In this document: one piece after another, positions 5,577 through 39,197 of the stretch
How positions within the stretch are numbered: position 1 is the stretch's first letter
Layout: each line of letters opens with the position of its first letter
NCBI GenBank assembly: GCA_001600815.1
Contig: BCKZ01000009.1
Span: forward strand, 910,803 to 949,999
DNA from: Alloascoidea hylecoeti
Lineage: Eukaryota
Length of the DNA stretch: 39,197 bases
Direction of reading: 5' to 3'
Position numbers and translations under genes: made by a program
The notes under the pieces: generated by a model
The model's input: the letters and a program-made list of their open reading frames with translations, nothing else
What the model was told of the DNA's origin: nothing
Database searches by the model: none

Positions 5577-6842
5577 ATGTCCTCACTCCAGAATCTTCAG
5601 ATCAAAATCGATTATGTTTCCGATCTCCCTGTTGAAATATCTGAAATAATCTTCTCATATTTGCCACCTAAAACTTTACTTAATTGTAGAAGAGTATCTA
5701 AATCATGGAAACAAATAGCTGAAAATGATAATATATGGAAATCGAAATTTCAAGATCAAAAATATTGGAAATACTATAATGATGAGTCCAAACCTGATTC
5801 TTGGTATGAATTATACAAAGAACGGTGTCTTTTAGAATTGAATTGGAAAAATGATATATTTACAGAGCATAAATTAACTGGTCATTCTGCTGAAACATAT
5901 TGCGTTAAATTTTATAAAAACTGGATTATAACTGGTTCAAAAGATTGTACCATACGAATTTGGGATAATGAAACTTTTGAATGTCTAAGAGTATTAGGAA
6001 AACTAAACCATGAGATTACAAGAGACTATTTATCAGAATTTGAAATGTTGGAATTAACAGAAAAGAATGATACCATATTTCATTTTGATAATGTTTCATA
6101 TTTAGATATAAATGATAAATATTTGATTTCCGGCTCATTTGATGGGACTTGCATAATTTGGAGATTACCTGATTTTAAATCAATAGATCGTTTAATATTA
6201 CCAACACAAGCAAATAATTTATTTCTAAGTGGGATAGCTTTATACAATGATTATGTTGTATGTTCTGGTTACGATTATATTGGGGTTTGGAAATCAAGTC
6301 TTGATGATTTGGAACAGCAACTAAAGTTTAATTTTCACCTCCGTATAAAAGGAGAAGGTTGGATTAATGGTATATGTATTTGTAATGGTATTATATATAG
6401 TGAAGTATCCGGAGGTGTGAGATTCTGGAATATTGAAACTGGTCAATTAATCCAAGAATTTCAATTACATTTTTTACATTTCTTTACAGTAAATGATCAA
6501 TACTTATTTGTTAGTCGCTACGATACACTAACAGTTTTGGATTTTCGAACAAATAAAAGAAGTATTTTATCAATTGAAGTAGCAGACTTAGGGCCAGTGC
6601 GATTATTCATAGTTAATAATAAACTCATTACCGTTAATAATGATTTTACTGTTAAGATTTGGAATTTAAATGATCTAAAATTAGATAAAGAATTTAAAAA
6701 CTTAGAACATGAAAAATTAAATTTGTCGCTTACTTCAATTCAAGCTGATTCGAAATTCTTGGCAGCTTTTACTATGGATGGTGATGTTGTTATTTATGAT
6801 TTTACCGCAAATTTAAGGAAAGAATATTTAAAACATTTATGA
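5577..6842 (+). CDS. F-box/WD40 protein, family copy 1 (intact, 421 aa)
   Basis: F-box DYVSDLPVEISEIIFSYLPPKTLLNCRRVSKSWKQIAENDNIW and WD repeats GHSAETYCVKF...ITGSKDCTIRIWD and LISGSFDGTCIIW. The ATG at 5577 matches the paralogue starts (MS...). Confidence 0.9.
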   Translation: MSSLQNLQIKIDYVSDLPVEISEIIFSYLPPKTLLNCRRVSKSWKQIAENDNIWKSKFQDQKYWKYYNDESKPDSWYELYKERCLLELNWKNDIFTEHKLTGHSAETYCVKFYKNWIITGSKDCTIRIWDNETFECLRVLGKLNHEITRDYLSEFEMLELTEKNDTIFHFDNVSYLDINDKYLISGSFDGTCIIWRLPDFKSIDRLILPTQANNLFLSGIALYNDYVVCSGYDYIGVWKSSLDDLEQQLKFNFHLRIKGEGWINGICICNGIIYSEVSGGVRFWNIETGQLIQEFQLHFLHFFTVNDQYLFVSRYDTLTVLDFRTNKRSILSIEVADLGPVRLFIVNNKLITVNNDFTVKIWNLNDLKLDKEFKNLEHEKLNLSLTSIQADSKFLAAFTMDGDVVIYDFTANLRKEYLKHL

Positions 6843-7399
6843 TCTATTTAAAATTGAGAATAGATATATCGTTGCTTAAATAAATTTTAATTCAAATAAA
6901 TTAATTTAATAATATCAACCCTCCATTATTAGGGAAGTGTAACGGGTATAATATTAATGTAACAATGAATTATAATGGAAGAGCATTTGGCTGGTGTATT
7001 GTTGAGGGTTGCAGTTCTCAAAACTGTTTTCCATCCTTATTGGGGAAGTAGTTTTAATTTTTGAATAGATTTAATTTCTTGGTGGACGGTGAGGGTGGAA
7101 AATTCTATTTACTTGATCAGATTTCACCACATAAATTGGAACATTATGTCCTCCCTACCAGCAGAATTTGCTTTTGGGGTAATGATGATATCAATGATAC
7201 ATAAACGTTGCTTCTGAATGAAAATCGCAGTATAACTGAATACTGAGTATTTTAAACGGCACAGACAACTTGGCGGATAATGTTCAGATGTTGAGGGTTA
7301 AAACCTCAATAATGTTAAATTTAAACCTCGAAGGCAACTTATTCTTATTCAAATTTGGAAAACGAATAAAACACAAGATGATGATATTACAGTCCTCAG

Positions 7400-7957
7400 G
7401 ATGAAATCAAACTACCTACGCTGACATAGCAGCGTTTGCACCACAAAATCCTAGGGCATCTATAGACAAGAAATCATTATTAAACAAATATGACATTAAT
7501 GTAACTAGCTCAACTCTGGGCAGAAGTTACAGCATTCCAAACACTGATTCATGGTAATAGTGATATAACAACTAACGAAACAGTAACTAAGGGAATCCAA
7601 GCACTAAATAATGAGAACATCACAGCCATATCTTATTCAAGAAATGGGCATTTAAAAGTTACTTCTAAAAAGAACTTAGAGGATGGTGATATCAAATCGT
7701 TAATTGATGCATGGAAAGATTAGGCATATTAAGTACAGCAAAATGGGAAGGAGAAGTAATTTATTTTGTACCAGTCGAGATAAACCGACACAATGATACA
7801 AGAATCATTAGACGATGACACTAATCTTAAGAACCTGGTGATATCAAAATCCGTAAAAACTATTCAAAAACGAAATCCAGAACCTACAACCTCACCCAAA
7901 CGATTTAGATCGAGAATACTCTTTCCAAATAAAGAGGCACGAGAAATTGCAATGAAA
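7400..7957 (+). mobile_element. Degenerate non-LTR retrotransposon (Tad/LINE-like) ORF1 remnant
   Basis: Across frameshifts and stops it reads TYADIAA...ITAISYSRNGHLKVT...KWEGEVIYFVPVE...FRSRILFPNKEARE, a motif order I recall from fungal LINE gag-like ORF1 proteins. Confidence 0.4.
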
Positions 7958-8300
7958 ATGATCAATACTTATTTGTTAGTAACGATGACAAACTAACAGT
8001 TCTGAATTTACAAACAAATAAAACAAGAGTTTTATCAGATGGAGGACCATTTAAATTAATTTCAGTTAATAGTAAAATCATTACTGTTGATCAGAAATGT
8101 ACTATTAAGATTTTGAATTTAGATGATTTAAAATTATTTAAAAAATTTAAAAATTTAGAACACGAAAGAATAATTTTATGGCCTACTTCAATTGATGCTG
8201 ATTCGAAAAAGTTAGCTGCTTTTACTATGGATGATGATATTGTTATTTATGATTTTACTGAAAATTTAAAAAAAAAAAAAATAAAAAACATTTATAATCT
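7957..8300 (+). pseudogene. F-box/WD40 family copy 2, 3' fragment only
   Basis: NDQYLFVS...LNLQTNKT...TSIDADSKKLAAFTMDDDIVIYDFTENL aligns to the C-terminus of copy 1; the end is frameshifted by a poly-A run. Confidence 0.85.
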
Positions 8301-9025: not shown

Positions 9026-9692
9026 TTTACAGATACATTCCGGTTCAATGAAGAACACTCAAACTATTCAAAGTTGTGGAGTATTCCCTAACCTAAGCCG
9101 ATAATCATCGACACATAAACATGTGTTAACATTTTTAGCCATTTAGATCAAGTGTTATCTGTTTTGGAACAAGCCAGTTTAACTGTTGCGCTGAAAAATA
9201 CCCCAATTTGTTGGAGTGAAATCTACTAGTGCTGGTTTCTATGCAAGTTCTCAGATATAGTGTTACTGATGATGATAGCTTTTCTATAGATTCCTACAAG
9301 ACACTTCCCGAATCCAGCTTGATACACTATCATTTTATTCCTATGTGGTACCCACTTAAATTCCTGTAGTTTCCTGTAATGATGGTTCTTAAATTATTTA
9401 TATATGAGATTCTAAGGTTTGTGTATGTTCCATAGTAAATAGTTTTTAATTGTTAGCTGTTAATAACGATAGTTCATTTTGTTTTCTGGGTATTCCAATT
9501 TCATACTCGTCATCAGTTTGCTTATGAAAAGGTCAAATTAATTATTAGGTTACACAGCTAATTAATGCATAGCACAATATGCGAATATAAACACATATGA
9601 AAAGCGAAATACTTATTAATTATAACCTTAAAATTTTCCACACACATCCAAACCTTCATATCCAAATTTTCCTCTTCTTCATCTTCATTAAA

Positions 9693-12662
9693 ATGGCCTC
9701 TGCTGCAATCGATACAAAACGTCGTCTATCAAAAGGAATCTCCGTATCTCAAAAGGTTTTTGTTCGTTCAAGAAACGGAACAGCTGCTAAAATCGTTAGA
9801 GAACATTATCTTCGTGATGATATTCCTTGTTCTTCCCGTTCATGCCAAACTTGTGAACAAATCTCTGATGCTTCAGGTCAATTAATTCCTTTTATATTAT
9901 CTTCAGATCCTTTTAAAATTCAAAATTATGGTCCACATTACATTGTAATTGATACAAATATTGCTCTTCATGCAATTGATCTTTTGGAAAACAATTCAGC
10001 TTTTTTTGATGTTATAATTCCACAAATTGTTTTAGAAGAAGTTAAAAATCGAAGTTTACCAATTTATAATCGTCTTCGAACATTAAATAAAACAGAAGAT
10101 AAAAGATTTTATATCTTTCATAATGAATTTAGATATGACACTTTTGAAAATCGAAAAACTGGTGAATCAATAAATGATCGAAATGATAGAGCAATTAGAA
10201 CTGTTGTTAAATGGTATCAATCACATTTAAAAAAGTCAAATTCGAATATAAATATAATTTTAATTACTAATGATGTTGATAATAAATTAAAAGCAAAAAA
10301 TGAAGGAATTATTGCATTATCACTTGAAGAATATATTAAATTATTACCAAATTCTGAAGATTTAATTGATTCTATACCAACAACTGATTTTGAAAATGAT
10401 TTTAAAAATAGAAAACCAGAAACTTCTTATCCTGAATATTTTTCAACTTCTAGATTAAATGGTGGTTTAAGAAATAATACTTTATATCAAGGTAATATTT
10501 CAATTAATTCTTATAATTTTTTGGAAGGTTCAGTTAGTACAAAAGCATATCCAAAACCATTATTAATACTTGGAAGAAAAAATTTAAATAGAGCTTTTAA
10601 TGGAGATTCAGTAATTGTTGAATTATTACCACAATCAAAATGGCATAAACCATCAGATGAAATAATTGAAGAAGAATCTTTAGATTCAAATGATAATGCA
10701 GAAACTGAAGATAATGATTCTGATATAATTTCTGAAAAAGAACGAAAATTACTTGCAAAAGAAGCATTATCTGTTCAAAAATCATTTGTTGAAGATAGTT
10801 CCACAACAAAAATTCAACCAACTGCAAAAGTTGTTGGTATAATTAGAAGAAGTTGGAGATTATATGTTGGACAAATTTCTCCACAATCAATTTCAACATC
10901 ATCAACATCAAATAGTAATGCTTTAAGAAGTGTTTTTGTTATATTAATGGATAAAACTTTACCACGTATTAGAATCAAAACAAGAAAAGCACAATCATTA
11001 ATTGGTCAAAGAATAGTTGTTGTCATTGATTCATGGCCTTCAAATTCAAAATATCCAGAAGGTCATTTTGTTCGTTCTTTAGGAGCAATTGAATCAGAAG
11101 GTGCTGAAACTGAATCTCTTTTATTAGAACATGATGTTGAATATAGACCATTTGCTAAAACAGTTTTAGATTGTTTACCAAAAGAAGGTCATGATTGGAA
11201 AGTACCCTCAGATTTGGAATTATCAACAACTAATGATGAACAATTACGTAAAAGGCGTGATTTACGTGATTTACAAGTATGTAGTATTGATCCTCCTGGT
11301 TGTCAAGATATTGATGATGCATTACATGCAAGATTACTTGAAAATGGAAATTATGAAATTGGTGTTCATATTGCAGATGTTACACATTTCGTTAAACCAA
11401 ATACTCCTCTTGATGCAGAAGGAGCATCTCGTGGAACTTCAGTTTATTTAGTTGATAAACGTATTGATATGTTACCAATGTTATTAGGAACAGATTTATG
11501 TTCATTAAAACCATATGTTGAAAGATTTTCATTTTCAGTAATTTGGGAAATGGATGAAAATTCAAATATAATTAATGTTGATTTTACAAAATCAATTATT
11601 AAATCAAAAGAAGCTTTCAGTTATGAAGAAGCACAAAAAAGAATTGATAATTTAAAAAATCAAGATGAATTAACAAATGGAATGAGAATTTTATTAAAAA
11701 TTTCAAAAAAATTAAAACAAAAAAGATTAGATAATGGTGCATTAAATTTAGCAAGTCCTGAAGTTAAAGTTCATATGGACAGTGAAACAGCTGATCCAAA
11801 TCAAATTGAAATTAAAAAATTATTAGAAACAAATTCATTAGTTGAAGAATTTATGTTATTAGCAAATATTAGTGTTGCAAGAAAAATTTATGATTCTTTC
11901 CCACAATATGCAATGTTAAGAAGACATGCTCCACCACCTGCAACAAATTTTGAATTATTAAATGATCAATTACAAAAAAGAAAAAATTTAAGTATTAGTG
12001 TTGAAAGTTCAAAATCATTAGCTGATTCTTTAGATAGATGTATTGATCCATCAGAACCTTTTTTCAATACATTGGTTAGAATAATGGCAACAAGATGTAT
12101 GATGTCTGCAGAATATTTTAGTTCTGGTAATTATGGATATCCTGAATTTAGACATTATGGTCTTGCTGTTGATATTTATACACATTTTACAAGTCCAATT
12201 CGTCGATATGCTGATATTGTTGCACATCGTCAATTAGCTGCTGCAATATCATATGAATCATTAGATTTAAATCATCGTGATAAATTTAAAATGGAACAAG
12301 TTTGTAAAAATATTAATAAACGTCATAGAAATGCCCAATTTGCAGGAAGAGCAAGTATTGAATATTATGTTGGTCAAGTTATGAAACAAAATGAATCAAA
12401 TCAAGAAGGTTTTATAATAAAAGTATTTTCAAATGGTATTGTTGTATTGGTACCTAAATTTGGTGTTGAAGGATTAATTAAACTAGAACAATTAGGTAAA
12501 TCAGAAACTGCAATTTTTCATGATGATAGTTATATTTTAGATTTTAAAGATGATAATAATAATCAAAGATCAATTGGATTATTTGATAAAATACAAGTTA
12601 AAGTTGAATCAGTTTTAGATTCTACTACAGGAAAGAGAAAGACACAATTATCACTTATATAG
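9693..12662 (+). CDS. DIS3: Exosome catalytic subunit Dis3/Rrp44
   Basis: CR3/PIN N-terminus ([30 protein letters not shown]), RNB catalytic motif [15 protein letters not shown] and [13 protein letters not shown]. Likely ATG at 9693 (MASAAID). Confidence 0.97.
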
Positions 12663-12689
12663 ATTTTTTTTTATTATGCATATATATTT

Positions 12690-14957
12690 TTAATGTTGTT
12701 TAACAACACCAGATGCATCAGCAGAAGCTAATATATGTACTTTATAATCATAAATCGTTCCAGGAAATTTAACAACTTGACCATCTTCACAGACCCATAG
12801 TTGATTACAAACTCTATCAATCATTGTAACATCGTGAGAAACCATTAATATACCACCATTGAATTGTTTAAAAGCATCCGCTAATGAATCTAAACCTTGA
12901 GTATCTAAATGATTTGTAGGTTCATCTAAAATTAATATATGTGGATTTGCTAAACCAAGTGCAGCAAAAGCTACACGAGATTTTTGACCACCAGAAAGTA
13001 AAGCCATTTTTTGCAAACCTAATGTACCTGTAATACCAAAAGCACCTAGATGACGACGATATTCTTCATCACTTTTACCATGGAAAGTTTTCGCCATCCA
13101 ACTAACAGCACTTAAATTAAGATCCATTTGATCAACATGATGTTGAGCAAAATAACCAATTCTTAATCTTGGGTTTCTTGACATTATGCCATCAACTGGT
13201 TGTAATTGACCTAATAATAATTTTAAAAGTGTTGTTTTTCCTGCACCATTAGCACCAACTAAAGCAATTCTTGAATCCATTTGAACATCTAAATCACAAC
13301 CTTTTAATATTAATTTTTCAGGAGTATAACCAAATGAAACATCTTGTAATTGAATAATTGGTGGAGATAATTTTTCAGCTTCAGGAAATCTAAAAACAAT
13401 TGATTTCACTTCTTCTGGTGGTTCTAAAATTGGTAATTTTTCTAATTTTTTAATTCTTGATTGTGCTTCAGAAGATTTTGCAGCATTATATCTAAATTTA
13501 TCAATAAAAGTTTGTAAATGTTTTCTATAAGCCATTTGATTTTCATATTCTCTAACTGCATTTTTTTGTCTTTCTTCTCTTGTTGCATAGAAATTATCAA
13601 AATTAGAGCCTCTATAATAATCTAAACGTTCTGAATGTTGATGAATAATATCAGTAGCTACTTCATTTAAAAATGCACGATCGTGTGAAACAACCAATAC
13701 AGTACTTGGGTAACCTCTTAAATAATCAGCAAGATAAGTAATTGAAGGAACATCCAACATATTGGAAGGTTCATCAAGTAATAATAAATCAGGTTTACAA
13801 AATAGAGCTCTTGCTAATGAAAGACGCATTCTCCAACCACCAGAAAATGAATTTGTTGGCATACCTTGAGATTCTTTTGAAAAACCAAGACCAGATAAAA
13901 TTGAAGCAGCTCTACCTTCAGCTTTATCACTTTCAATTTCAGCTAATTTTGAATCAACATCTAATAAATGTTCTTCAAGTTCATCTCTTTCAGCATCTAA
14001 TTGTCTAACTTCATGAGATTCTTCATCAAATTCTTTTCGTAATTTTTCAATTTCAGAAACTCTTTCATTTATTTTTGATTCTTCAATAAGTAATTGTTTT
14101 CTCCAAACATCAGCATCAAGAACAGATTGTAAAGCAGTGGTATCATCACCAGTTAATTCTTGTTCAACATGTAAAATTGTGATATGTTTTGGAATATTTA
14201 ATTCTCTTCTTGCCAATGCACGAAGTAAAGTAGATTTACCAATACCATTCTGACCAACAAGACCATATCTATGACCATAACTTAAAGTAAGAGTTGTATC
14301 AGATAAAATTCTTTTACCAGCTCCAACATATAAATCAAAATTTTCAACTTTAATATCTTTACTTTTACCATAAGATCCACCAACATCTAAAGGATTTACT
14401 TTTAAATAAAAAGAGTCATAATCTTCTTGCTCTTGTTCTTCTAAAATTCTTGAAGCTTCATAATTAATTGCTTGACGAACAGCATTTTCTTCACGTTTTT
14501 CTAATTTAGCTCTAATTTTTCTTTCAGCTTTTTCTAACTTCTTTTTATCAACTCTTGTTTCCATTTTTCTACCAGTATGTTCAATATCAGTTGTAGCACC
14601 AAGTAAAGCCATTGAAGAAGATTGTCTTTGTGATTGATTTGCTAATAATGTACGATCAATAACTCTTCTACTTGTATCACCAACTAAAGCCATTTTTGAT
14701 GCATTTTCTTCCAATAATTTTGTAAAATGAGATCTTAAATTTTCAGATAATTTAGAAACAGCATCCGAATTCCCACCAGCACTAATTAAAAGATATTGAA
14801 GAAATGAAATCTCTTGTGATATATTTAAACCTACACTAGCAACAGCATCATGAGTTAAAGATTCAACATAGCTAGCATAACCAGCAGCGTATTCAGAAAC
14901 AATCGGGTCGATTGAAGGAACAGCTTTTCTAACTTGAACGGAAATTGGAGGTGCCAT
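12690..14957 (-). CDS. GCN20: ABC-F ATPase Gcn20
   Basis: Two nucleotide-binding domains (GQNGIGKST, FSGGWRMR, GANGAGKT, LSGGQKSR), no transmembrane domain, and a Gcn20-type N-terminus (QVRKAVPSIDPIVSEYA). Confidence 0.95.
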   Translation of the reverse strand: MAPPISVQVRKAVPSIDPIVSEYAAGYASYVESLTHDAVASVGLNISQEISFLQYLLISAGGNSDAVSKLSENLRSHFTKLLEENASKMALVGDTSRRVIDRTLLANQSQRQSSSMALLGATTDIEHTGRKMETRVDKKKLEKAERKIRAKLEKREENAVRQAINYEASRILEEQEQEDYDSFYLKVNPLDVGGSYGKSKDIKVENFDLYVGAGKRILSDTTLTLSYGHRYGLVGQNGIGKSTLLRALARRELNIPKHITILHVEQELTGDDTTALQSVLDADVWRKQLLIEESKINERVSEIEKLRKEFDEESHEVRQLDAERDELEEHLLDVDSKLAEIESDKAEGRAASILSGLGFSKESQGMPTNSFSGGWRMRLSLARALFCKPDLLLLDEPSNMLDVPSITYLADYLRGYPSTVLVVSHDRAFLNEVATDIIHQHSERLDYYRGSNFDNFYATREERQKNAVREYENQMAYRKHLQTFIDKFRYNAAKSSEAQSRIKKLEKLPILEPPEEVKSIVFRFPEAEKLSPPIIQLQDVSFGYTPEKLILKGCDLDVQMDSRIALVGANGAGKTTLLKLLLGQLQPVDGIMSRNPRLRIGYFAQHHVDQMDLNLSAVSWMAKTFHGKSDEEYRRHLGAFGITGTLGLQKMALLSGGQKSRVAFAALGLANPHILILDEPTNHLDTQGLDSLADAFKQFNGGILMVSHDVTMIDRVCNQLWVCEDGQVVKFPGTIYDYKVHILASADASGVVKQH

Positions 14958-15132
14958 TTATTTCATCAAATTATTTTGATGCTGATTTTGATGATTTTTA
15001 TGAGTAACAAAATTGAAAATTGAAAATTGAACATCACGTGCTGCTGACCACGTTTTTTCCATTGAAAAAGTGAAAAATTATATCTGAGACATCATCTGTT
15101 ATACTTATTATTTTTCAACAACAAATCAAAAA
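14958..15132. promoter_or_regulatory. Compact bidirectional promoter GCN20/ARO3 with TCACGTG (Cbf1-type) and ATGAGTAA (Gcn4/Yap-like) motifs
   Basis: 175 bp between the divergent ATGs; TCACGTG at 15034-15040 and ATGAGTAA at about 15000-15007. Confidence 0.45.
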
Positions 15133-16318
<1,186 letters not shown>

Positions 16319-17092
16319 GTTCTTTTTTCTGTTAAAGATATATAGCAGTTTTATGAATTAGAGATATAGCATGTATTAGGATTAGCCTTATACTTTTTTA
16401 TGTTTTATTGTATCTTATTTTAGAATTGGCTATAGCCATGGAAATTAAAAGTTTTAATATATAATAAATTTAGGTAGATTAAAAATCTAAAGTAAAACTT
16501 TCAATGGATAATGTTATAGTAGTTTAAATTGAAAATTGAAGTTGCTAGCAATAGTATATAAGAACTTAAATACAATTTGAATTGCAATGGTTCATAATTA
16601 TAAATAGGAAGAAGTTTAAGAAGTAAAACAATTGTGTAATTGTACTGTATGAGCTAACAAAATAAATAAATAAAAAAATTCATCTTTTTACAAATATTTA
16701 ATCAAAAGAATTTAATAATAATGTAGTGAGTAGTGATGATAAAGTAAATGCAAGTTTTTTAATATAATGATGTAGTATGTATAAAAATATTCTCTCGTTA
16801 TCAATATAAAGTTTTGTTTGTTTGTTTAATAAGTTATTTCATTTGATTTCCAATTGTTGTATAAAATCCTCATTCAAATTTAAAAATTAATTTAAATTTA
16901 TAAGTCTTCAAAATCAAAATATTGATTATATTTTTCTAATGACCATTCCATCATGCTATTATTAATTTATATTATATATCAGTTCTTATTTAATTTGTTC
17001 TATTTTGTTGATATCAGTATCCATTACTGTCATATAATATAAAAAATATAAAAAATATAAAAAATTGTGTGTACATTATGATCATGTTCATA

Positions 17093-18008: not shown

Positions 18009-18040
<32 letters not shown>

Positions 18041-18388: not shown

Positions 18389-18657
18389 ATTGATATTTTT
18401 GATGGTTGCCTTTGATGGATCTTCGTATTGTAAATTGAGCTATTCGGAGAAGAAAGGGAATCAGCCAGCCGTCTGGATGCGATAGAAAGAAAAACACTTA
18501 CGGTTGAAGGTTGGTACGCCATTTTCTACACCACTGAAAAAAAACACACAGAAAAAAGGGGTAAAAACGTTTACAAGAAAAAAGAAGAAAAAGAAGAAGA
18601 AACGAAAAAAAAGGGATAAATGAGTGTTTTTATATTCATTCGGTACATTAAACTAAA

Positions 18658-27967: not shown

Positions 27968-28050
27968 ATTAATAAGTAAAAGAGAGTTGATATTATTGAA
28001 TTTATTTCAAAAGTAACACTGTTTATTTTCAATTTACAATTTTAAATGAA

Positions 28051-29304
28051 TTATAAATGTTTTAAATATTTTTGCCTTAGATTTTCAGTAAAATCATAAA
28101 CCAGCGCATCATCATCCTTAGTAAAAGCAACTAGCTTCTTCGAATCACCCACAATTGAAGTAGGCCATAAATTTAATGTTCCAGAATCTAAAGTATATTC
28201 TTTATATAATTTTAGATCATTTAAATTCCAAATCTTAATATTAAGATCTTTATGAACAGTAATAAGTTTATTATTAACTATGGAGAATTCAAGTGGTCTA
28301 TCTGTTTTTTCACCTGGTAAAAGATTTGTTTTGTTTGTTTGTAAATCCAGAACTGTTAGTGTGTAGTTCTCATTAGCATATAAGTATTGTTCATTTATTC
28401 TAAATTGTGTAAGATATAATCGAAATTCTTGGATTGTTTGGCCAGTTTCAATATTCCAGGATCTTATACCTCCGGATACTCTACCATATATGATACCATT
28501 ATGAATATAAATACCATTGACCCAACCTTCCCCTTTTATACGGAGTTGAAAATTGAACTGTAGTTGATGTTCCAAATTATCAAGACTTGATTTCCAAACC
28601 CCAATATAGTCATACCCACAACATACAATATAATCATTGTATAAAGCAACACCATTTGAAAGCATATAATTTCCTTGTGATGGTAATTCCAGACGATCTA
28701 TTGGTTTAAAATCCGGTAATTTCCAAATTATACAAGAGCCATCCCATGAAAGAGAAATCAAATATTTATCATTAATATCCAAGTATAAAACAGTATCAAA
28801 ATGAAATATTTCATCATTCTTCTCTATTAATTCCGACAATTCTGTTTGTGATAAAATAATTTTTCTAGTCTTTTTGATTTTTCCTATTACTCTTAAACAT
28901 TGAAAAGTTTCATTATCCCAAATCCTTATTGTAGAATCCAATGAACCAGTTATAATCCAGTTTTTAAAAAATTTAACACAACATGTTCTATCAGAATGAC
29001 CAGTTAATTTGTGTTTCGTAAACTTATCATTTTTCCAGTTCAACTCTAAGAGATAACGTTCCTTGTATAATTCATACCACGAATCAGTTTCGGAATCATC
29101 GTTATAATACTTCCAATTTTTTTGATTTTGAAACTTTGATCTCCATATGTTGTCATTTTCAGCTATTTGTTTCCATGATTTAGAAACTCTTCTACAAATG
29201 AGTAATATTGTTGTTGACAAGTTTGAAAAGATTATTTGAGATATTTCATAAGGGATATTGGAAACAAAATCGATTGTAGTATCAAGATCCTTTTTTAAGG
29301 ACAT
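28051..29304 (-). CDS. F-box/WD40 protein, family copy 5 (intact, 417 aa)
   Basis: Uninterrupted ORF with F-box and WD repeats collinear with copy 1; ends ENLRQKYLKHL. Confidence 0.9.
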   Translation of the reverse strand: MSLKKDLDTTIDFVSNIPYEISQIIFSNLSTTILLICRRVSKSWKQIAENDNIWRSKFQNQKNWKYYNDDSETDSWYELYKERYLLELNWKNDKFTKHKLTGHSDRTCCVKFFKNWIITGSLDSTIRIWDNETFQCLRVIGKIKKTRKIILSQTELSELIEKNDEIFHFDTVLYLDINDKYLISLSWDGSCIIWKLPDFKPIDRLELPSQGNYMLSNGVALYNDYIVCCGYDYIGVWKSSLDNLEHQLQFNFQLRIKGEGWVNGIYIHNGIIYGRVSGGIRSWNIETGQTIQEFRLYLTQFRINEQYLYANENYTLTVLDLQTNKTNLLPGEKTDRPLEFSIVNNKLITVHKDLNIKIWNLNDLKLYKEYTLDSGTLNLWPTSIVGDSKKLVAFTKDDDALVYDFTENLRQKYLKHL

Positions 29305-29644
29305 ATTGCAAATGTTTAAATGGTCGTTATTTAAGTTCTTGTAGTTGTCGATAATATTATAGCTCTTTGCAATAACAAGTGAGAAGAAGAAGAATCACTT
29401 CCAATTTTTGTTATCTAGGAATTGCGTTATGGCTGGGTGATGAATCGAAAAATACATATAGCTGTATCCAAAATGGCTGCCAGGACGGACAACCACAGTT
29501 GTCACATTTCAGCCGTGAATTGCAAAACTGGCAATATACTTAATTTATTGAAAATAGTATCAATTAGATCTAATAAATCTCATAATTCTGAAAATACACT
29601 TCGTGTAATTTTTCTAAATCTTATTTTGGTGTTCTATATTTGAG

Positions 29645-29800
29645 AGATGTACCATTTAGATGTGGACAGTAAAGTACCAGTGGATCTCCTCCTAAATATC
29701 TGTAAACAACCGGAGTTTCCTTATTTCTATATAAAAGTAATGGATTTCGTTCAATTATCAGTTTATGATAAATCTTGCAACAATATTGCTTACTAAAAAT
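29645..29800 (-). mobile_element. Degenerate Ty1/copia-type integrase core remnant
   Basis: The minus strand reads ACTGATAATTGAACGAAATCC (TDN*TKS, compare TDNGTEF), followed by IHWYFTV / PHLNGTS (compare GIxHxxTVPYTPQLNGVSER) across frames. Confidence 0.35.
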
Positions 29801-30944
29801 ATTTTTGTCTATCTTCAAGATGAATCACTTATATACTCTATAGTACTTATCTTATTCACCAGCTCATGGAAACATGTTAGTATTTGCAGATAACCATTTT
29901 TATAAAGAAGAAGTAGTTGATGAACTATATCTCCCTAGTCAATAGTAGAGTGAGTCTTTTCTCTTTGGTAGGTCTCTATTAATATCGACCATGGAGACGA
30001 ACTGCAAGATTATTTTTTTTTACTAATATTTCTGGTAACCTTCTTAGGTACGACACTTTCTTCTTTTTCTTTCCTCTTTTGAGGATTTAATCATGGAGTC
30101 CATGGAATTATTGAAGGTTTTTAACCTTGTTATTTGAATTTCTGATGAAGATACGGGTTGTAAAAGGAAGAATTTTGGTTCTTTAAGGTGAGTTGGTTAA
30201 GCTTATAGATCTCATCAATTCTCATTCTTCGCTGCGGTGATCACATTAAAGAGACACTATTCTATTCTATGAACGTAGGGGTATCATATGATCCGCACAT
30301 TGTGCTATTCAGTTAATTGTGGAATTCCTGAAATTGGGTTTTAAGATTGGAATTGGTTGGCTCTGCGATCATTGGATTAAATCACAGAAGAACACACACC
30401 ACAACAATATTAACAAAAATAACTACATATTACCAGAATTGTGAGATTAAATAGAGCCTAGTAATAATATATACAATAATTGAATTTTTTTGCTGGTTTT
30501 GTAATTCGTGGTTTAAATGTAACACTTTTGGGTGTCCAATGGCCATCTTTGTCCTAGCCCTTCCTGAATGAGTGAATACATATAAGCCTTAAACTGATTC
30601 TAAGAACATTATTACTATTTTAAAAGTCATTCAGAGTACTTGGTATCTGGTTATAATACTGCCATTTTTATCTTGAGTGGTATATATCCAAAAAAGCCTT
30701 ACAACTTAAAATTAGGAAAATGTGGGAAAACCGATAGCCCCAATTCAGCAGCTCCCTTAATTAATATCTTTGGGCCATTAGTTGGAGAGGTGGTACGCTT
30801 TATCTTATAATTAGTATAATAGATTAAATAGTGGTTAAAATTTTAAATTTGGAACATATTTCAAACTAATCGACAAACCACAAGGAAATTCTGCTGTTTA
30901 CGGAGGGACATAATGTTCCAATTTTTTCGGAGAAACCTGAACAT

Positions 30945-31496
30945 GTTTGTGGTAATATCAGACGATGTATTGGCTTAAAATCTAATGATTTCCAAATTAT
31001 AAAAGAACCATCTAATGAACCAGAAACCAAATATTTATCATTAATATCCAAGAATAAAATATCACTGAAATGAGTTATGGCATCGCTTTTTTATTAACTC
31101 CAACAAATAAGTCTCTGATAAACTCCTTGTTGAAAGATTAAGGTTTTGTTTTCCTAATATTCTTATACAAAGATAATTTTCAGTATCCCAAATTGTTATT
31201 GCACAATCACTTGAAACTAGTCCAATTTTTATAAAATTTATCATTTTTCCAGTTCAATTCTAAAAGATAACGTTCTTTGTGTAATTCACTCCATGAATCT
31301 GTTTCTGAATCATCATTATAGTATTCCCAAGATATTTCATCTTGACATTTCGATTTCCATATATTATCATTTTCAGCTATTCGTTTCCATAATTTAAAAA
31401 TTGTTCTACAAATAAGTAAAGTTGTTCATGGCAAATCTAAGAAGATTATTTCAGATATTGTCGTCTCAAAAAAAAAAGATTTTGGTTTAAGGACAT
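30945..31496 (-). pseudogene. F-box/WD40 family copy 6: 5' half with deletions and frameshifts
   Basis: Damaged F-box, WSELHKERYLLELNWKNDKF, ITIWDTENYLCIRILGK and DINDKYLVSGSLDGSFIIW; truncated after LILPQ. Confidence 0.85.
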
Positions 31497-32059
31497 GTTG
31501 CAATCAATTGTTTGAATGGCTGTTGTCTACGTATTAGTAGTTATTAATAATAATACGACTCTTGACAATTGGGAAAAAAGAAAGAGGTTTTGAACTTTAC
31601 TCCTTGTTTTTGTGAAATCTAGCTAAAGTGGTACGTACCAGTAAGTGTACATGTATAGCTACATAGTAGAATATTTTGGTAGACGGGTAGCTATCCATAT
31701 ATGACTATGTACATCTGCAGTATTCCTTTATATGGATATGCAACTATGCATGAATACCATATAGAGTATCTTATATTGCATATACATATGCAAATAAATT
31801 AAGGATAAATAGTTTTACTTTTTTTGATTTAAAAGGAATGTTTGGGACTCAAGCAAAAACGACGTTAGCTTTAATGCTGCAGAACCGAGACATACACACA
31901 GTTGAGTAGCCACATGTCTACCCTAAATCAAACGAGAAAATCCGATACGTGGATCATAAAAGAGTAAAATCCTAAGATTTAAGTTTTGNTGTTGCTGCAC
32001 GTGCAGGACATGAGGTCGGGTAAATTATTGATCATCAGCTGCTATTGGAGTCTTTCATC

Positions 32060-32310
32060 CGAGCCCCATCCGAAACCTAGTCAAATTTTTGACTATCTTA
32101 GACTCGTTTTGGTTTCGGATCTCTGGATATTTCGATTATGTAATAATATAGTAATAATAATTGGATAACAATGGGTAAATGTACGAATGCATGGGTGTGT
32201 GTGGAGGATTTGGATTTGGATTCGGATTTGGGTTATAGATTTCGAGGCCAGATTCGGACTAAACACGGGTAACCTCTGAAATGCCGAGTCCGAATCCAAA
32301 TGCATCTCTA
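32060..32310. mobile_element. Possible hAT/MITE-like element end with CCGAATCC/GGATTCGG subterminal repeats
   Basis: Nested inverted repeats (ATCCGAAACC/GGTTTCGGAT, TAGTCAAA/TTTGACTA, GATTCGGACT/AGTCCGAATC). It ends in CATCTCTA, the reverse complement of TAGAGATG; a partner TIR was not found. Confidence 0.3.
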
Positions 32311-32391
32311 GTTGCTATGCATAGTAGTTGCTCTACCATAACCATTTATAATTGTAGTATTTTATTACACTCATTACGCAAAACACTTAAG

Positions 32392-33630
32392 ATGACATTA
32401 GATTTTGTTTCCGATTTCCCTGTTGAATTATCTGAAATAATCTTTTCAAATTTGCCAACAACAACTTTACTGATTTGTAGAACAATTTCTAAATCATGGA
32501 AACATATAGCTGATATCGATAATATTTGGAAATCAAAGTTTCAAGAACAGAAATCATGGAAATACAATAATGATGATGGGGAAACTGATTCATGGCATGA
32601 ATTATACAAGGAACGTTATCTCTTAGAATCAAATTGGAAACATGGTAGATTTGAAAAGTTTAGACTAACAAATTCTGTTTTCACAAGTAGCGTTAAATTT
32701 TATAAAAACTGGTTTATAACTGGTGGAGCAGATTCTACAATATTGATTCAGGATAGTTATACTTTCGATCGTATAAAACAATTAGGCAAATCAAATTATG
32801 ATAATAACTCTATATCAAGAGATGCATTTTTAAGATTAATAGAAAAAAGTGATGTTATAACTCATTTTTGTTATATTACATGCTTGGATATTAATGATAA
32901 ATATTTGGTGTCTGCTTCACTCGATTATTCATATATAATTTGGAGCTTACCAGATTTTAAACCTATATATCGTCTGATCTGTCCATCAAAGTCTGAAGGT
33001 GGTTTAAGAAGCGTCTGTTTATACAATGATTATATTGTAGGCTCTCATGGTGTTAATATTACGGTTTGGAAATCAAGTCTTGATATAGAAAATCAATTAA
33101 AGTTTAATTTACAANTCCGTATAAAAANACGTGGCTGGATTACTCAGATTCGCATTCATAATGGTATTATATATGGTCTAGAATCTAGACGTTTANGATC
33201 CTGGAATATTGAAACTGGTAAAATAATCAAAAAATATTCGTTTGGTCCTATAAATTGCTTTGCAGTAAATGAACAATACTTAATTGTTCGTAATTACAAC
33301 AAAATAACAGTTCTGAATTTACAAACAAATAAAACAAATATTTTATCATGTGTTAAAACAGAGNTAGTATCACCTCCATTATTTATAAATAACAATATAA
33401 TCCTTACTTTTAAAGATGAAAATACTATTAACATTTGGGATTTAAATGAGATGAAATTATTTAAAGAATTTGAAAAATTAAAATTTTGGCTTGGTCANGA
33501 CGAAATANATTTANAGAATACTTCAATTGATGCGGGTTCGAAAGGATTAGCTGTTTTCACTAAAGGTGGTGATATTAATGTATTCAATTTTTCTNAAAAC
33601 TTGAGGAAAGAATATCTAAAATATTTATAA
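32392..33630 (+). CDS. F-box/WD40 protein, family copy 7 (apparently intact, divergent, contains Ns)
   Basis: MTLDFVSDFPVELSEIIFSNLP...NLRKEYLKYL. The family-typical ATG appears lost, so the next Met at 32392 is used. Confidence 0.78.
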   Translation: MTLDFVSDFPVELSEIIFSNLPTTTLLICRTISKSWKHIADIDNIWKSKFQEQKSWKYNNDDGETDSWHELYKERYLLESNWKHGRFEKFRLTNSVFTSSVKFYKNWFITGGADSTILIQDSYTFDRIKQLGKSNYDNNSISRDAFLRLIEKSDVITHFCYITCLDINDKYLVSASLDYSYIIWSLPDFKPIYRLICPSKSEGGLRSVCLYNDYIVGSHGVNITVWKSSLDIENQLKFNLQXRIKXRGWITQIRIHNGIIYGLESRRLXSWNIETGKIIKKYSFGPINCFAVNEQYLIVRNYNKITVLNLQTNKTNILSCVKTEXVSPPLFINNNIILTFKDENTINIWDLNEMKLFKEFEKLKFWLGXDEIXLXNTSIDAGSKGLAVFTKGGDINVFNFSXNLRKEYLKYL

Positions 33631-34449
33631 TCTATTTGGAATTGAAAATATANTTCCCTCCTTCAAGAAATTTCAACTGTAATAAATTTAGTACCATCAA
33701 GGTAGTATCAACTCTCCATTACTAGGGATCCGGATCTGTAACATCAAAATGATGCTACCAATATTAATATTTCTGTAATGCCAACTTATACTTTCTAATT
33801 GGCATTGGATTCGAGAATTATTTAACTGATATGTCTGAAAATAATTAGCACTTTTTTTTTATGAAATTAGTTAATGATCTGTTGGAATGAAGAACTAGAC
33901 TAGACACCTTTCAGACATTCAATTCCAGTAACTCATACGAAATATAATTAGCCACTGTATTGAAATCTAATTAGTATTTCCTAATTATGCTATATAATAT
34001 TGGTAAATGAAGCACTATGTTTTTGAGGTAATGAATTTCTATATGATCTAGTTTTAGCTATTTTAGTTTTCAATTAACTACTGTAATATGTTAGTTGTAT
34101 AAACACAAGTTAAATCTACGGTTACTTATAAATATACTATAATATAAATATTTTATTGTAGCTTACTTGAATCAATACTTATTACAATGGTCTTAAAATT
34201 TAATAAGAATGATAACTATCAAATCAAAATTGGTTAGAGAACCTATNTTAGTAGAGANNANATTAAGAGGAATGGAAATTGAAATTAAGATTAAGATTAA
34301 TAATAATNAGCATGATTTTATTATGAAATTTTTATTGAAATAATACAATATATGTAGATGAATCTGAAAATCATTTAAACTGGAAAAGGTGGTAGACAAT
34401 CTTATTTCCCATAAGAATCAATCAGCAATTCGTATTGGAAATTATGATC

Positions 34450-34660
34450 AATAAAGTTTATCTATTTTCTCTACTTTAGGATTTATTACTCAATCAAGAA
34501 AACGTTTATAAATAAATAATTTGATAAGCATATAAACTACGAATTGACCTCCAAAAACATATCTGGTGCTTTTAAAAAGTTAGGTTTATATCACTATTCA
34601 ATTCAAATTATGTCTTGAAATGAAGTGTTAGAACAAATACAACTGAACCGATTGAAAATG
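34450..34660 (+). mobile_element. Possible pogo/Fot1-type transposase C-terminal remnant
   Basis: LTSKNISGAFKKLGLY followed by frameshifted FNSNYVL, resembling the TxxNIxxxFxxxGxxPFNxxxVL motif. Confidence 0.3.
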
Positions 34661-34732
34661 NATATACTGAATGCCGGACTCACAGAGGACTCACCGAAGA
34701 GCTTGTTAAANAAAATATGAGTTTTCAATAGA

Positions 34733-35566
34733 TTATAAATGTTTTAAATATTTTTTCTTTAAATTATTAGTGAAATCATGAATTAAAACGCCATGCCAAC
34801 CTAAANCAGCTAGTTAGCTAGCTTTTTGGAGTCAGCATCAATTGACGAAGAATAAAANAGTAAATAATTGTAAGTTTCTGAATCTTCAGATTCTTTAATT
34901 AATTTTAGATCATTTAAATTCCAAATCTTAATAGTATCATAAAAAACCAAAATGAGTTTATTATTATTTATAAATTATAGATTTTGTACTCCTTGATCTG
35001 ATAAAATATTTGTTTTTCATTTGCTTGTAAATCCAAAGCTGTTAGCTTGTTCTCACTAACAAATAAGTACTGATCATTTACTGCAAAGAAATTCACAGTA
35101 CCAAATCGAAATTCTTGGATTATTTGACCAGTTTCAATATTCTAGGATCTTACAACTTCAGAATCTATACATGATACCACTATGAATGCAAATACCACCA
35201 ATTCAATCTTCTCCTTTAAACGAAGTTGTAAATTAAACTTTAGTTGATGTTCCAAATTATCAAGACTTGATTTCCAAACTCAAATATATTCACACACACA
35301 CACAATCACAACATACAATATAATCATTGTATAAAGCAACGCTTATTAAATAATTTGATTGTGATAATATCAGACGATGTATTGGCTTAAAATCTGATGA
35401 TTTCCAAATTATACAAGAACCATCCAATGAACCAGAAACCAAATAGTTATCATTAATATCCAAGAATAAAATATCACTGAAATGAGTTATGGCATCACTC
35501 TTTTCTATTAACTCCAACAATTTAGTTTCTGATAAACAGAAGTTCGAAATACCATAGTTTGGTTTC
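34733..35566 (-). pseudogene. F-box/WD40 family copy 8: 3' two-thirds, several stops, (TG)7 insertion
   Basis: LELIEKSDAITHFSDILFLDINDNYLVSGSLDGSCIIW through to YLKHL*; the F-box and first WD repeat are absent. Confidence 0.87.
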
Positions 35567-36875
35567 CGGTCTGAGACTCTGAGTAGTTCAACAGGCCAAA
35601 TTGATATTTGTTATTGGGGTTGCCTCGGTAAATGCAACCAGATCAAGATTAAACTGCCACCACTTCATATAAAAATGACTAGATTATAACTAGTTTTTGA
35701 GCCCTGAGATGTTCTTGAAATAGTTCACAATTCTAAATATTCTACTCTCCTTGTAAAATGACAACTTATGCTTAGTATTTAGTCTTAGCGCCCCGCTCGC
35801 GGCTTGTGAAGTAATCACTGGTGCAAATCTAAATCGTTTTGGGCTGGTTCTATAGTTTATATCACCCGAAACAGTCTAAGCAACATAGGATAAATCAAAG
35901 AGCCGTGTACCACTAGATCCGGAGCCAAAACCGACATTGGTGTTTTTTTTTTTTGATATTATACGTACTTCATACGTGCTTCTCTAGTCTAAACTACATG
36001 TCTGCTTTGATGAACTTTTCCTTTTTGTCAAGCTGCCGATGACACATTCTTACGATCGCGAAATGACAGTTGGACAGATACTGTACTAGATTTGAAATAG
36101 GAAACCTAAAGCGATAAGAGAATTGGGATTAAAAATGGAGAAGTAAGATGGGCTGGTGAGATATAAAAGTTATGTAGAGCTTTAGATATAAGCTTAAAGA
36201 GAGGTTGATTTCTCGAAAGTTTAAGAATTCATTTGCTAATAGCTGGTCAATTAATGATCATTAGTTTTATCTTTACTAGAATATTGAATTTCAGCAGAAT
36301 ATATAAACAACCTTATAGTCTCATACCCTTATTTCATAAGCAGCTGATCGTCGTGGTCCTTTATTCCTTCATATTTGGAATTATCGATGATATATTTTTA
36401 AATGATAGAGAATCTCACAAGCTAATATAATAGGTCCCCAAGAAAGATATTTTTGATGGAAATAAAGTATGGGATGTTTCAAAATCTCAGATTTTTCGAG
36501 TGACTAAAATTATAATGATAGATATGGTATTATAGTGCCGATATGATATAACAATTCTTGCTTTTAATTTTGCTGTATTTTATTTGGTAGATCTAGTAAA
36601 TCCCATCAATATTGATTTTCCAATGATAATTATAATAAGTTTAAAATAAAATAAAAACTTATCACTTTAAAATATGAATAAATTGTGCAATAATGAATAA
36701 TGGTCCAATTAAAAAGATGGGAAATTGTTCGAGGTGGAGGTTTAAGTTTCATCATGCTTGGGTTAAATTACGTTTTCCACTAATTTAATATTTTCTTATC
36801 TGATAACTAACCTGACCAGTTGATATAAATATTACGGACCACTTTTCTTCTTTTTCTTCACAAACTATACAAATC

Positions 36876-37973
36876 ATGACAATTGAACCTGAAATCAATG
36901 ATCCTAAGTTTTTCAACACAGATGTTCCTTTAGTTAAAGTATCAGGTACACCATATGAAATTGGTTTTGCACATGGTTCCATAGCAAAAAAACAAATCCA
37001 TAAATCAATTTCAAATTATCATATCATATTTAAAACACGATATAATTTCAGTTGGAAACAGGTTAAAGAAATAGTTATTAAATTTGTTCCAATATTAGAA
37101 TCATCATATCCTGAAATTATTCAAGAAATTAAGGGAATTGCTGATGGTGCAAATGTTGAATTATTAGATATCTTATCACTTAATTCAAGATCAGAGATTT
37201 TTAGATATGGATTTTCGGATGGCTGTACTAGTATTGGACAAATCGATCATATTACAAAAGAAGTCTACATTGGTCAGAATTGGGATTGGGTTTCCTGTTA
37301 TAAAGATACATTGGTAGCACTTGACATAACACAGCCAAATACTGGGAAACCACGTATTTTCTTGATAACTGAAGCTGGATTTGTGGGTAAACAAGGCTTC
37401 AACACTAGTGGAGTTGGATTACTCCAAAATGCAATAAAACATACTTCTGTTGATCTTACACACTGGCCTATTCAAATTGCAATTAGAAAAGCTTTAGAAC
37501 AGCATACAGCTAGTGATTCTTTAGCTGTTTTAAAGAAGCATGGTGTTGCAAGTAGTGTTAGCTTACTGGTTGCTGATAGGACACAAACTTTTAATATTGA
37601 AGCTACACCTTTAGGAATTCAAGTGATCAAACCAACTATTAATGAAATTGGAGATACTTTGATTACACATACAAATCATTTATTGCATCCAAATAAACAA
37701 GTCGACGATCAGCCAATTCTGAATTCCCTTCATAGACTTCAAAGAGTTAATGAGCTTTCTGAAAAAGCTAATGTTGGAGATATTCGATCAAGATTAAGTG
37801 ATACTGAAAACTTTCCATATTCTATTAGTAGACATGCACAAGAAGGAGTTTCTGAATATGATGCAGTCATAACCATTTATACTACCATCATGAACTTGAC
37901 AAAATTGGAGGCAAACATTAGTATCGGAGAACCTTCGACAAACCCTGAACAGTACATATACAAATTAGAATAG
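36876..37973 (+). CDS. Peptidase C45 / Ntn-hydrolase (isopenicillin N acyltransferase-like)
   Basis: GTPYEIGFAHG, EIKGIADGA, LNSRSEI, the autoprocessing site DG|CTS, GQNWDW, ITEAGFVGKQGFN and HTNHLL. Confidence 0.88.
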   Translation: MTIEPEINDPKFFNTDVPLVKVSGTPYEIGFAHGSIAKKQIHKSISNYHIIFKTRYNFSWKQVKEIVIKFVPILESSYPEIIQEIKGIADGANVELLDILSLNSRSEIFRYGFSDGCTSIGQIDHITKEVYIGQNWDWVSCYKDTLVALDITQPNTGKPRIFLITEAGFVGKQGFNTSGVGLLQNAIKHTSVDLTHWPIQIAIRKALEQHTASDSLAVLKKHGVASSVSLLVADRTQTFNIEATPLGIQVIKPTINEIGDTLITHTNHLLHPNKQVDDQPILNSLHRLQRVNELSEKANVGDIRSRLSDTENFPYSISRHAQEGVSEYDAVITIYTTIMNLTKLEANISIGEPSTNPEQYIYKLE

Positions 37974-38544
37974 ATTTGTATACGTATGTTTATTTTTATA
38001 TTTTTACTACTAGCAATACAGACTCTACATGTGGTGATGATAGTATTTAATGAGAAAAAAAAACATAATGCCCATTTTTTGGAGGAAAATGGGACTCGTA
38101 AAACTCACTGTCTTTTTAACTGTTGGGTTATATTAATTATGGAGATTTGGTTGTTGATTCTCTCCTCTCCATGTGTTGCTTCAAATTGTTCATTTTTGAA
38201 TTCTATGTGAGGTTTACCAGTCTCATCAACATTGTAAATGGCTAGTATTTATATTTGTCACATGACCATTTTAACCATAATTGCATCTAAGAAGGTCATG
38301 ACCCAGGCCCATTCGTTAATATTGCTAACATAATAGATATTCCCATTTGTTGTTATTAGATCTGAGTAAAGTTGAGTTTACTCTTCCACGAACCAAAATA
38401 TCATGAACGGCAATTTAGATATGTTATACTTTAAAATATGATGAATTGAAGTTTCAAGGATATTTGTATATATTACCGGGATTGTCGCATTGTCAGTTTT
38501 GAAGTATGGATCGCAAGCACAGTAACCATTTAAACAATTGCAGT

Positions 38545-39197
38545 ATGTCCTTACACAGAAAACTTAAGATAGTATTAGATTCTATTTCCGATCTCCCTTA
38601 CAAAATATATGAAATAATCTTCTTGGATTTGGTACCAGAAACGTTACTTAATTGTAGAAGGGTGTCTAAATCTTGGACACGAATAGCTGATAATGATGAT
38701 GGGGAAACTGATTCATTGTATGAATGGGTTATACAAGGAACGTTGTCTTTTAGAACTGAATTGGAGAAATGATAAATTTACAAAACATAAATTGTCATTC
38801 TGCCAAAACATATTGTGTTGAATTTTTTAAAAACTGGATTATAACTGGTTCAGATGATTGTACAATAAGAATTTGGGATAATGGAACTTTTCAATGTTTA
38901 AGAATATTAGGAAACATAAACCAGGAGATTTTAAATCACAGATTATCAGACAATCAATTGTTGGAATTAATAGAAAATAATGATGCCATATTTCATTTTG
39001 GTACTGTTATACATATGGATATTAATGATAAATATTTGGTTTCTGGTTCATTGGATGGTTCTTGTATAATTTGGAAATCATCAGATTTTAAGCCAATACA
39101 TCGTCTGATATTATCACAATCAAATTATTTAATAAGCGTTGCTTTATACAATGATTATATTGTATGTTGTGATTGTGTGTGTGTGTGAATATATTTG
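38545..39197 (+). pseudogene. F-box/WD40 family copy 9: 5' half with internal deletion and frameshifts, runs off the window end
   Basis: F-box SISDLPYKIYEIIFLDLVPETLLNCRRVSKSW, then shifted frames with HSAKTYCVEFFKNWIITGSDDCTIRIWD. Confidence 0.87.

Follow-up and report, generated by a model that had tools for sequence, protein, structure and literature searches.

We analysed a 39,197-bp stretch of DNA from the budding yeast Alloascoidea hylecoeti (contig BCKZ01000009.1, positions 910,803 to 949,999 of the forward strand; referred to below as the window), which carries nine copies of an F-box/WD40 gene. We propose, with a probability of about 0.6, that these copies belong to a lineage-specific birth-and-death repertoire of substrate receptors for Skp1-Cul1-F-box (SCF) ubiquitin ligases, in which the docking module and scaffold are fixed and the substrate face has diverged individually. 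The most informative result is an inverted pattern of constraint: the presumed binding face has diverged more within this one yeast than across fungal orthologues, and all other parts of the protein are far more uniform.

Conserved docking module and variable top face

Textbook topology places the D-A and B-C loops of a WD40 propeller on its top (ligand) face. We took strands A-D of each blade from an AlphaFold2 (AF2) model of the protein encoded by one intact copy type (A-type), and assigned the D-A and B-C loops to the top and the A-B and C-D loops to the bottom. Entropy was calculated over 19 paralogues; P0020, P0012 and the row of a pseudogene were left out. The top loops (65 columns, a helical insert excluded) had 2.20 bits and the bottom loops (50 columns) 0.84 bits (Mann-Whitney p 3e-13). 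Values elsewhere were 0.90 bits in the F-box, 0.69 in the linker, 1.22 in the strands and 0.66 in the C-terminal tail. The relation was reversed in 25 single-copy fungal orthologues, whose top loops had 1.21 bits vs 2.12 bits for the bottom loops (p 5e-5). This pan-fungal orthogroup thus has conserved top loops and variable bottom loops, the opposite of the yeast paralogues. Paralogues varied more than orthologues at 40 of 56 top columns and at 3 of 44 bottom columns.

These values bear on a rival explanation, passive expansion. By this account, the gene was multiplied by ectopic recombination, the ancestral substrate was lost, constraint was relaxed, and the copies are decaying slowly with no new specificities. 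We regard it as possible, though doubtful. The bottom loops are far more conserved in the paralogues than in the orthologues; general decay is hard to reconcile with this, and the pattern confines the change to one face.

Selection on the docking module and the reading frame

The window copies were the sole source of DNA for the ratio of nonsynonymous to synonymous substitution rates (dN/dS), which was calculated by the Nei-Gojobori method (NG86). Three copies have open frames: copy A (5577-6842, plus strand; 421 amino acids [aa]), copy B (28051-29304, minus strand; 417 aa) and copy C (32392-33630, plus strand; 412 aa, with a further ATG at 32281). Between A and B, dN/dS was 0.45 for the whole gene, 0.17 for F-box, linker and tail together, 0.43 for the scaffold and 0.81 for the top loops. 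The corresponding values were 0.67, 0.25, 0.72 and 1.17 for A-C, and 0.74, 0.24, 0.86 and 1.27 for B-C; the top-loop values rest on 89-97 codons per pair. The A-B linker alone (37 codons) gave 0.04. The ratio of replacement to silent changes between A and B was 60:18 in the top loops vs 94:59 in the rest (Fisher p 0.019). Pairs of broken fragments gave 0.6-1.1 over their full overlap and up to 1.6 in one propeller segment, and pairs with the long pseudogene D gave 0.44-0.75.

We also simulated neutral change in copy A. At half the A-B divergence (A and B differ at 19.3% of bases), the frame was open in 1 of 20,000 runs, and at full divergence in 0 of 20,000, indels being ignored. These findings show purifying selection on the docking module and the reading frame, with frames kept open beyond what neutral drift allows. 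Passive expansion would explain the conserved F-box and scaffold by youth of the copies, by gene conversion from a functional parent, or by weak selection against misfolded or Skp1-titrating products. However, the low docking-module values between open copies occur at a dS of ~0.5-0.6, the A-B scaffold is likewise constrained, and ~20 open frames exist that neutrality would not lead one to expect.

Several points weigh against a repertoire of receptors. The top face is a putative one, assigned from textbook topology and the strand order of a model. The F-box part of that model is weak, with a predicted local distance difference test score (pLDDT) of 29-62 over residues 1-80. Outside blades 1-2, the residues that mark a WD40 repeat (GH, and the Asp in the B-C turn) are mostly gone from the derived copies, a loss that could be equally compatible with decay. 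Top-loop dN/dS did not exceed 1 for the two clearly intact genes A and B, and the values above 1 (1.14-1.46) all involved copy C or pseudogene D. With top-face dN/dS near 1, neutral drift fits equally well as diversifying selection. NG86 may misestimate dS at 30% G+C, and the three open copies with DNA are too few for a site model. Leucine codon bias in the copies is weaker than in highly conserved neighbouring genes, which fits low expression; metatranscriptome X8 gave matches of ~21 letters only and was uninformative on expression. Passive expansion gains from the top-loop ratios, from the missing signature residues and from the weak codon bias. Because top-loop dN/dS is ~1 (0.81-1.46), positive selection on the top face is not demonstrated. 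The original prediction had described a candidate diversifying system: the conserved docking module and the variable presumed substrate face bear this out, and the part concerning diversifying selection is not supported.

Protein architecture and predicted fold

Pfam searches of copy A gave 56.5 bits for F-box-like (PF12937), 49.4 for F-box (PF00646) and 57.9 for WD40 (PF00400), and those of copy B gave 43.3, 38.3 and 37.4 bits, all past the cut-off. In copy C, PF12937 (32.1 bits) and PF00646 (34.4 bits) were past the cut-off, and WD40 (19.8 bits) was under its cut-off of 27. Eight F-box positions are invariant across 20 paralogues. Human Fbw7 aligned to positions 6-140 of a profile built from these 20 paralogues, a region that spans F-box, linker and first blade (E 1e-50); beta-TrCP (~1e-33) and yeast Cdc4 (1e-27) were matched as well.

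The AF2 model of the A-type protein had a mean pLDDT of 76.5 and a predicted template-modelling (TM) score of 0.76, and most of the propeller was at 80-94. It comprises the F-box and linker helices, seven four-stranded blades and an N-terminal strand (residues 96-100) that closes the propeller. A helical insert (residues 141-172) separates blade 1 from blade 2, and the C-terminus carries a short helix. The best whole-length Foldseek matches were FBXW11, beta-TrCP1, Fbw7 and Cdc4 in Skp1 complexes (probability 1.00, TM 0.60-0.65, identity 17-21%). Look-alikes in the ESM Atlas were FBXW9- and FBXW8-like clusters of animals and plants, which added nothing beyond the description F-box/WD40. The copies therefore qualify for the FBXW class by sequence and by fold (A and B; C with its WD40 score under the cut-off), and the SCF-adaptor anatomy expected by the original prediction was recovered from Pfam, profile matches, model and Foldseek alike. 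Conservation of the F-box is the one basis on which Skp1 binding is predicted.

The order F-box, helical linker, WD40 propeller is common to the copies and to human Fbw7, human beta-TrCP1/2 and yeast Cdc4, at 17-21% identity. The Cdc4 and Fbw7 propellers have eight blades, whereas the model has seven and carries the helical insert. Unlike the single-copy, conserved Fbw7, beta-TrCP and Cdc4, the copies are multi-copy, and their WD40 signature residues are mostly gone outside blades 1-2. Cdc4, Fbw7, beta-TrCP and Met30 have a dimerisation (D) domain directly ahead of the F-box. The first residue of the F-box match is number 15 in both A and B and number 7 in C, and most paralogues begin 11-14 residues ahead of the F-box. 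Some 14 residues leave no room for a D domain, so the copies, as judged from their sequences, fail this feature of the Cdc4/Fbw7/beta-TrCP/Met30 subgroup.

Family size and parent gene

A word-indexed database search found 20 proteins with 48-100% identity to copy A; the next match had 24%. These paralogues are single-member clusters on short contigs (2.9-21 kb). A HMMER search of every representative protein found 13 further short proteins (122-203 aa), which are family fragments, and no additional close relative. All 20 paralogues and 13 fragments apparently come from this same organism, and the protein database searches found no relative above ~33% identity outside its own records, in agreement with the predicted lineage specificity of the family. 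P0010 and P0019, which both report a longest contig of 20,894, may form another cluster. P0017, P0020, P0016 and P0018 are truncated or internally deleted. A metagenome scan for more paralogue DNA found one weak unrelated locus only (L001, 39% over 44 residues).

The best full-length outsiders were one protein per named species among the matches; in Saccharomycotina and Pezizomycotina, the named ones came from Sugiyamaella (labelled Met30p), Myxozyma, Limtongia, Lipomyces, Trichomonascus, Tuber, Orbilia and Bogoriella. With P0012 as query, further matches appeared in Mucoromycota and Basidiomycota at ~33% identity. The labels 'Met30p' (carried by P0037) and 'FBXW1/11' in this orthogroup are automatic names; P0037 lies within the orthogroup together with named members from Lipomycetaceae, Trichomonascaceae and Pezizomycotina. 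When P0012 and P0037 were searched against PDB sequences, the parent orthogroup could be placed neither with beta-TrCP nor with Fbw7.

A maximum-likelihood (ML) tree was built from 47 rows, 22 of the family and 25 of the orthologues (LG+G4, quick search). It separates the family, as one clade of 22 rows, from the 25 orthologues (SH-like approximate likelihood ratio test, 100). The first branch within the family leads to P0012 (517 aa), whose N-terminus is extended by ~90 aa and whose terminal branch is 0.11; the remaining 21 family rows have a common stem of 0.29 and terminal branches of 0.21-0.58. P0012 scored 278 bits against the orthologues and the other family rows 119-182 bits. It keeps 26 of 37 orthologue-conserved top-loop residues, and the 19 derived copies examined keep a mean of 27%. 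By sequence, P0012 is the apparent orthologue of an F-box/WD40 gene that is pan-fungal, single-copy and uncharacterised. That orthogroup is the nearest relative of the copies by sequence and has the linker pattern and C-terminal end in common with them; its proteins carry N-terminal extensions of ~35-335 aa. The tree reads as if the other copies descended from a P0012-type duplicate that shed the N-terminal extension and then multiplied.

These data support a lineage-specific, large and monophyletic family. The features of a birth-and-death multigene family are present: paralogues alongside pseudogenes, a species-specific clade, and copies that are not homogenised. Turnover of this kind had been proposed from the window, and the 20 gene models, 13 fragment representatives and six dead window copies confirm it. 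The dead copies (6 of 9) and the fragment models are also what passive expansion would produce.

Nine copies in two clusters

We located the copies by tblastn with the copy A protein and refined them with the 20 database paralogues. Nine F-box/WD40 places were found (E-values 1e-21 to 0), on both strands. The first cluster consists of A and E, and the second has the order F-D-B-G-C-H-(AAT-family gene)-I. The number, the two clusters and the mixed orientations are as originally predicted. Copy A was identified from its open reading frame (ORF), Pfam and the AF2 model, and is 99.8% identical to P0001; copy B, from its ORF and Pfam, is 99.3% identical to P0002.

Six copies are broken, again as predicted. 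Copy E (7957-8268, plus strand) is a C-terminal fragment that corresponds to aa 306-413 of A without the F-box (tblastn identity 64%, E 2e-32; translation). Copy F (23958-24158, minus strand) is an N-terminal fragment of 67 aa with the F-box only, found by tblastn and translation. Copy D (24746-25986, minus strand) is a full-length pseudogene with two in-frame stops and one frameshift in the three-frame translation. Two further fragments were delimited by tblastn and translation, copy G (30950-31458, minus strand; aa 21-208, one stop, three frames) and copy H (34816-35607, minus strand; ~aa 126-396, several frame changes). Copy I (38545-39197, plus strand) is a broken N-terminal half in three frames that extends past the window end (tblastn); its third piece corresponds to P0088 (128 aa), a gene model among the 13 database fragments. 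Together with copy H, copy I makes up an inverted repeat of 89% identity (35281-35560 and 38918-39197).

The status of copy C is uncertain by ORF, Pfam and translation. Eight of its codons contain N, and three of these eight become stops if N=T. Its first WD blade is degenerate, with the GH and WD signatures gone, and its branch in the ML tree is the longest among the window copies. Because of the N codons and the degenerate blade, its intactness is not established; of the three copies predicted to be intact, A and B clearly are. A contig of data set X1 departs from the window at 32654, 32671 and 32677. The consensus in the N-bearing part (31989-34858) may mix paralogues or alleles.

Reality of the arrangement

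If one or a few genes had been inflated into many by mis-assembly, the array would be an artefact. We compared the window with contigs of three data sets, two of them isolate data sets (X1 and X4) and one a wood-decay metagenome (X3). The comparison covered 13200-33114, so that A, E, H, I and most of C lie outside it. Copies F and D are bridged by contigs over 24009-24763 in X1 and X4. Copies D and B are bridged over 25709-28235 in X1 and X4, and X3 spans 25597-28235 as two adjoining pieces. The B-to-G bridge (29176-30981) is in X1 only, with most of the stretch in X3 (to 30732) and in X4 (two pieces, to 30972). Differences from the window in the listed contig pieces numbered 0 in X1 and X4 and 1-3 in X3. 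Pseudogene D also occurs in contigs of X1, X4 and X3, with 3 differences in 657 bases in X3.

An artefact could account for the position of all 19 N in the window, which lie in or near copies C and H, and for short-read contigs that end inside copies. However, the copies are 12-32% apart in DNA, each with its own lesions, contigs of the three studies join unique DNA to neighbouring copies with 0-3 differences, and a second, independent set of gene models contains near-identical counterparts of A and B (P0001 and P0002). The bridging contigs, these gene models and the occurrence of pseudogene D in X3 make an assembly artefact very unlikely. The collapse of copies into an artefact, which the original prediction had named as a risk to itself, is already largely refuted.

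Contig 'joints' were considered as deletion alleles and set aside; their sides are only 20-36 letters long and resemble unitigs of other paralogues. The sole longer joint, of 130 letters, is an opposite-strand one in X3. Raised summed contig depth over the copies was not taken as copy number.

Duplicated unit, gene conversion and repeats

Alignment of six upstream regions showed that ~100 bp directly upstream of the ATG are conserved among A (5470-5576), B (29305-29420), D (25987-26100), F (24159-24260) and I (38440-38544). The blocks of A and B are 83% identical by blastn over 5520-5576 and 29335-29391, and that of A has a ~28-bp deletion adjoining the ATG. The duplicated unit thus includes a possible common promoter or 5'-untranslated region.

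This unit bears on a selfish or conflict-driven origin, in which the genes would spread by drive as a toxin-antidote system, as agents of hybrid incompatibility or as Skp1 decoys. In Caenorhabditis, hybrid incompatibility is reportedly caused by species-specific F-box genes, and F-box genes also feature in work on toxin-antidote elements (PMC11573670 and PMC12680543). The case would be made only by this nematode analogy and by the confinement of a fast-turnover family to one lineage. Against it, no partner 'toxin' gene is duplicated, the repeated unit being the gene plus ~100 bp upstream, and the arrangement, pseudogene D included, is alike in the three data sets, with no presence/absence difference over 13200-33114. 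We consider such an origin quite improbable.

The copies themselves, at 62-89% DNA identity, account for almost every repeat in the window. Distances among the copies (12-32%) shift along the gene; the A-G distance is 0.117 over aa 1-60 and 0.261 over aa 126-208. In the four pairs examined among A, B, C and D, third positions diverge least (0.03-0.17) in the first blade, in the two windows over codons 90-135. The mosaic distances and the low third-position divergence hint at occasional gene conversion between paralogues, a hint that counts in favour of passive expansion.

The transposon debris described by the original prediction was not found. None of 24 intergenic ORFs matched a transposon family in Pfam at E<=1, and the window has no tRNA genes and no Rfam matches. 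Self-comparison by blastn found only five short repeats (32-69 bp) outside the copies. They include 24439-24507/29528-29596, 27582-27629/30490-30537 and 4628-4659/8991-9022 (86-94% identity), and these three are the sole candidates for debris.

Neighbouring genes and host

The window has ~30% G+C, and its 19 N are all within 31989-34858. The genes between the two clusters encode Dis3/Rrp44, a GCN20-type ABC protein, a DAHP synthase, a UBP14-type deubiquitinase and an AidB/acyl-CoA-dehydrogenase-like (ACAD-like) protein by Pfam, each in single copy. In a self-comparison of the window, every gene apart from the F-box/WD40 copies occurs once, so that the neighbouring housekeeping genes are single-copy as first described. 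An acyl-CoA:6-APA acyltransferase (AAT)-family gene (PF03417; 36876-37973), also single-copy, is flanked by the broken copies H and I.

The GCN20-type protein (12690-14957, minus strand) has at most 72% identity to any named protein. Its best named matches are all from budding yeasts of several orders (Spathaspora, Ascoidea, Babjeviella, Scheffersomyces, Pachysolen, Wickerhamomyces and Ogataea), and it is about equally distant from several of these orders. By this measure, the host seems to be an isolated budding-yeast lineage without a close named relative in the protein database searched. Near-identical window DNA occurs in the wood-decay metagenome X3.

The DAHP-synthase ORF (15503-16318, plus strand) begins at position 53 of 270 of the Pfam profile, so that ~50 N-terminal residues are absent from it. 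No X1 contig covers 15192-15855, and the X3 contigs are interrupted by a 6-base gap at 15205. The ORF could be short because of an intron, a frameshift or a fault in the assembly.

No CTG occurs among 3,200 codons of the four conserved GCN20, DIS3, UBP14 and ACAD-like genes (9597-23478), and CTG is rare in the other window genes (0-4 per gene). The decoding of CUG would affect at most 3 residues per family member.

Discussion

In our preferred reading, one conserved pan-fungal F-box/WD40 gene would have been duplicated repeatedly in this budding-yeast lineage, and its derived copies would have shed the N-terminal extension. Purifying selection would have kept the F-box, linker helix, propeller scaffold, bottom face and C-terminal tail, so that the copies would still dock on Skp1-Cul1. 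The top face of the propeller would have diverged until every paralogue showed a different surface, the one to which substrates presumably bind. Copies would continually have been gained and lost, and each receptor would bring a different protein to the SCF core for ubiquitination. Such a repertoire may have adaptive value.

The Podospora NACHT/HET-WD40 (HNWD) non-self genes encode STAND NTPases that have no F-box and whose WD repeats are highly similar and evolve in concert. They are likewise a fungal paralogue family with a hypervariable WD40 ligand face. The proteins described here differ from HNWD in that their internal repeats are unlike one another and an F-box serves as the effector module.

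In nematodes and plants, too, F-box families have undergone lineage-specific expansion, with variable domains that are mostly FBA/FTH/DUF38, kelch or LRR. Such families, reportedly described by Thomas in 2006 and, in wild isolates of C. elegans, in PMC8120010, are likewise large, clustered and of fast turnover, with a conserved F-box and a variable substrate domain. Positive selection has been demonstrated in the nematode and plant families, whereas the copies described here have a WD40 propeller, a top-face dN/dS of ~1 and a unicellular budding-yeast host.

A further suggestion is an innate-immunity-like repertoire, in which dozens of SCF receptors with diversified WD40 faces would have been selected to tag fast-evolving foreign or selfish proteins. 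Candidate targets might be proteins of double-stranded RNA viruses or retroelements, killer toxins, or proteins of competing cells. The targets named in the original prediction (viruses, transposons, toxins and non-self cells) likewise come by analogy only. We hold this suggestion tentatively and think it rather unlikely; if it holds, the F-box arms-race families known from nematodes and plants would have an equivalent in a unicellular fungus.

Budding yeasts serve as the reference case of an F-box complement that is small and conserved. Full-text literature searches, which did not extend to subscription journals, turned up no earlier account of F-box/WD40 genes expanded in this group. With at least 30 F-box/WD40 genes and remnants, the family would be the first such adaptor expansion described in budding yeasts, as far as the literature found goes. 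Compared with the parent gene, the family shows constraint in inverted form, with a free binding face and all else fixed. The organism is presumably culturable and could thus offer a tractable system for the drivers of ubiquitin-adaptor arms races, and the family would supply a naturally occurring collection of WD40 binding surfaces mounted on one fixed scaffold.

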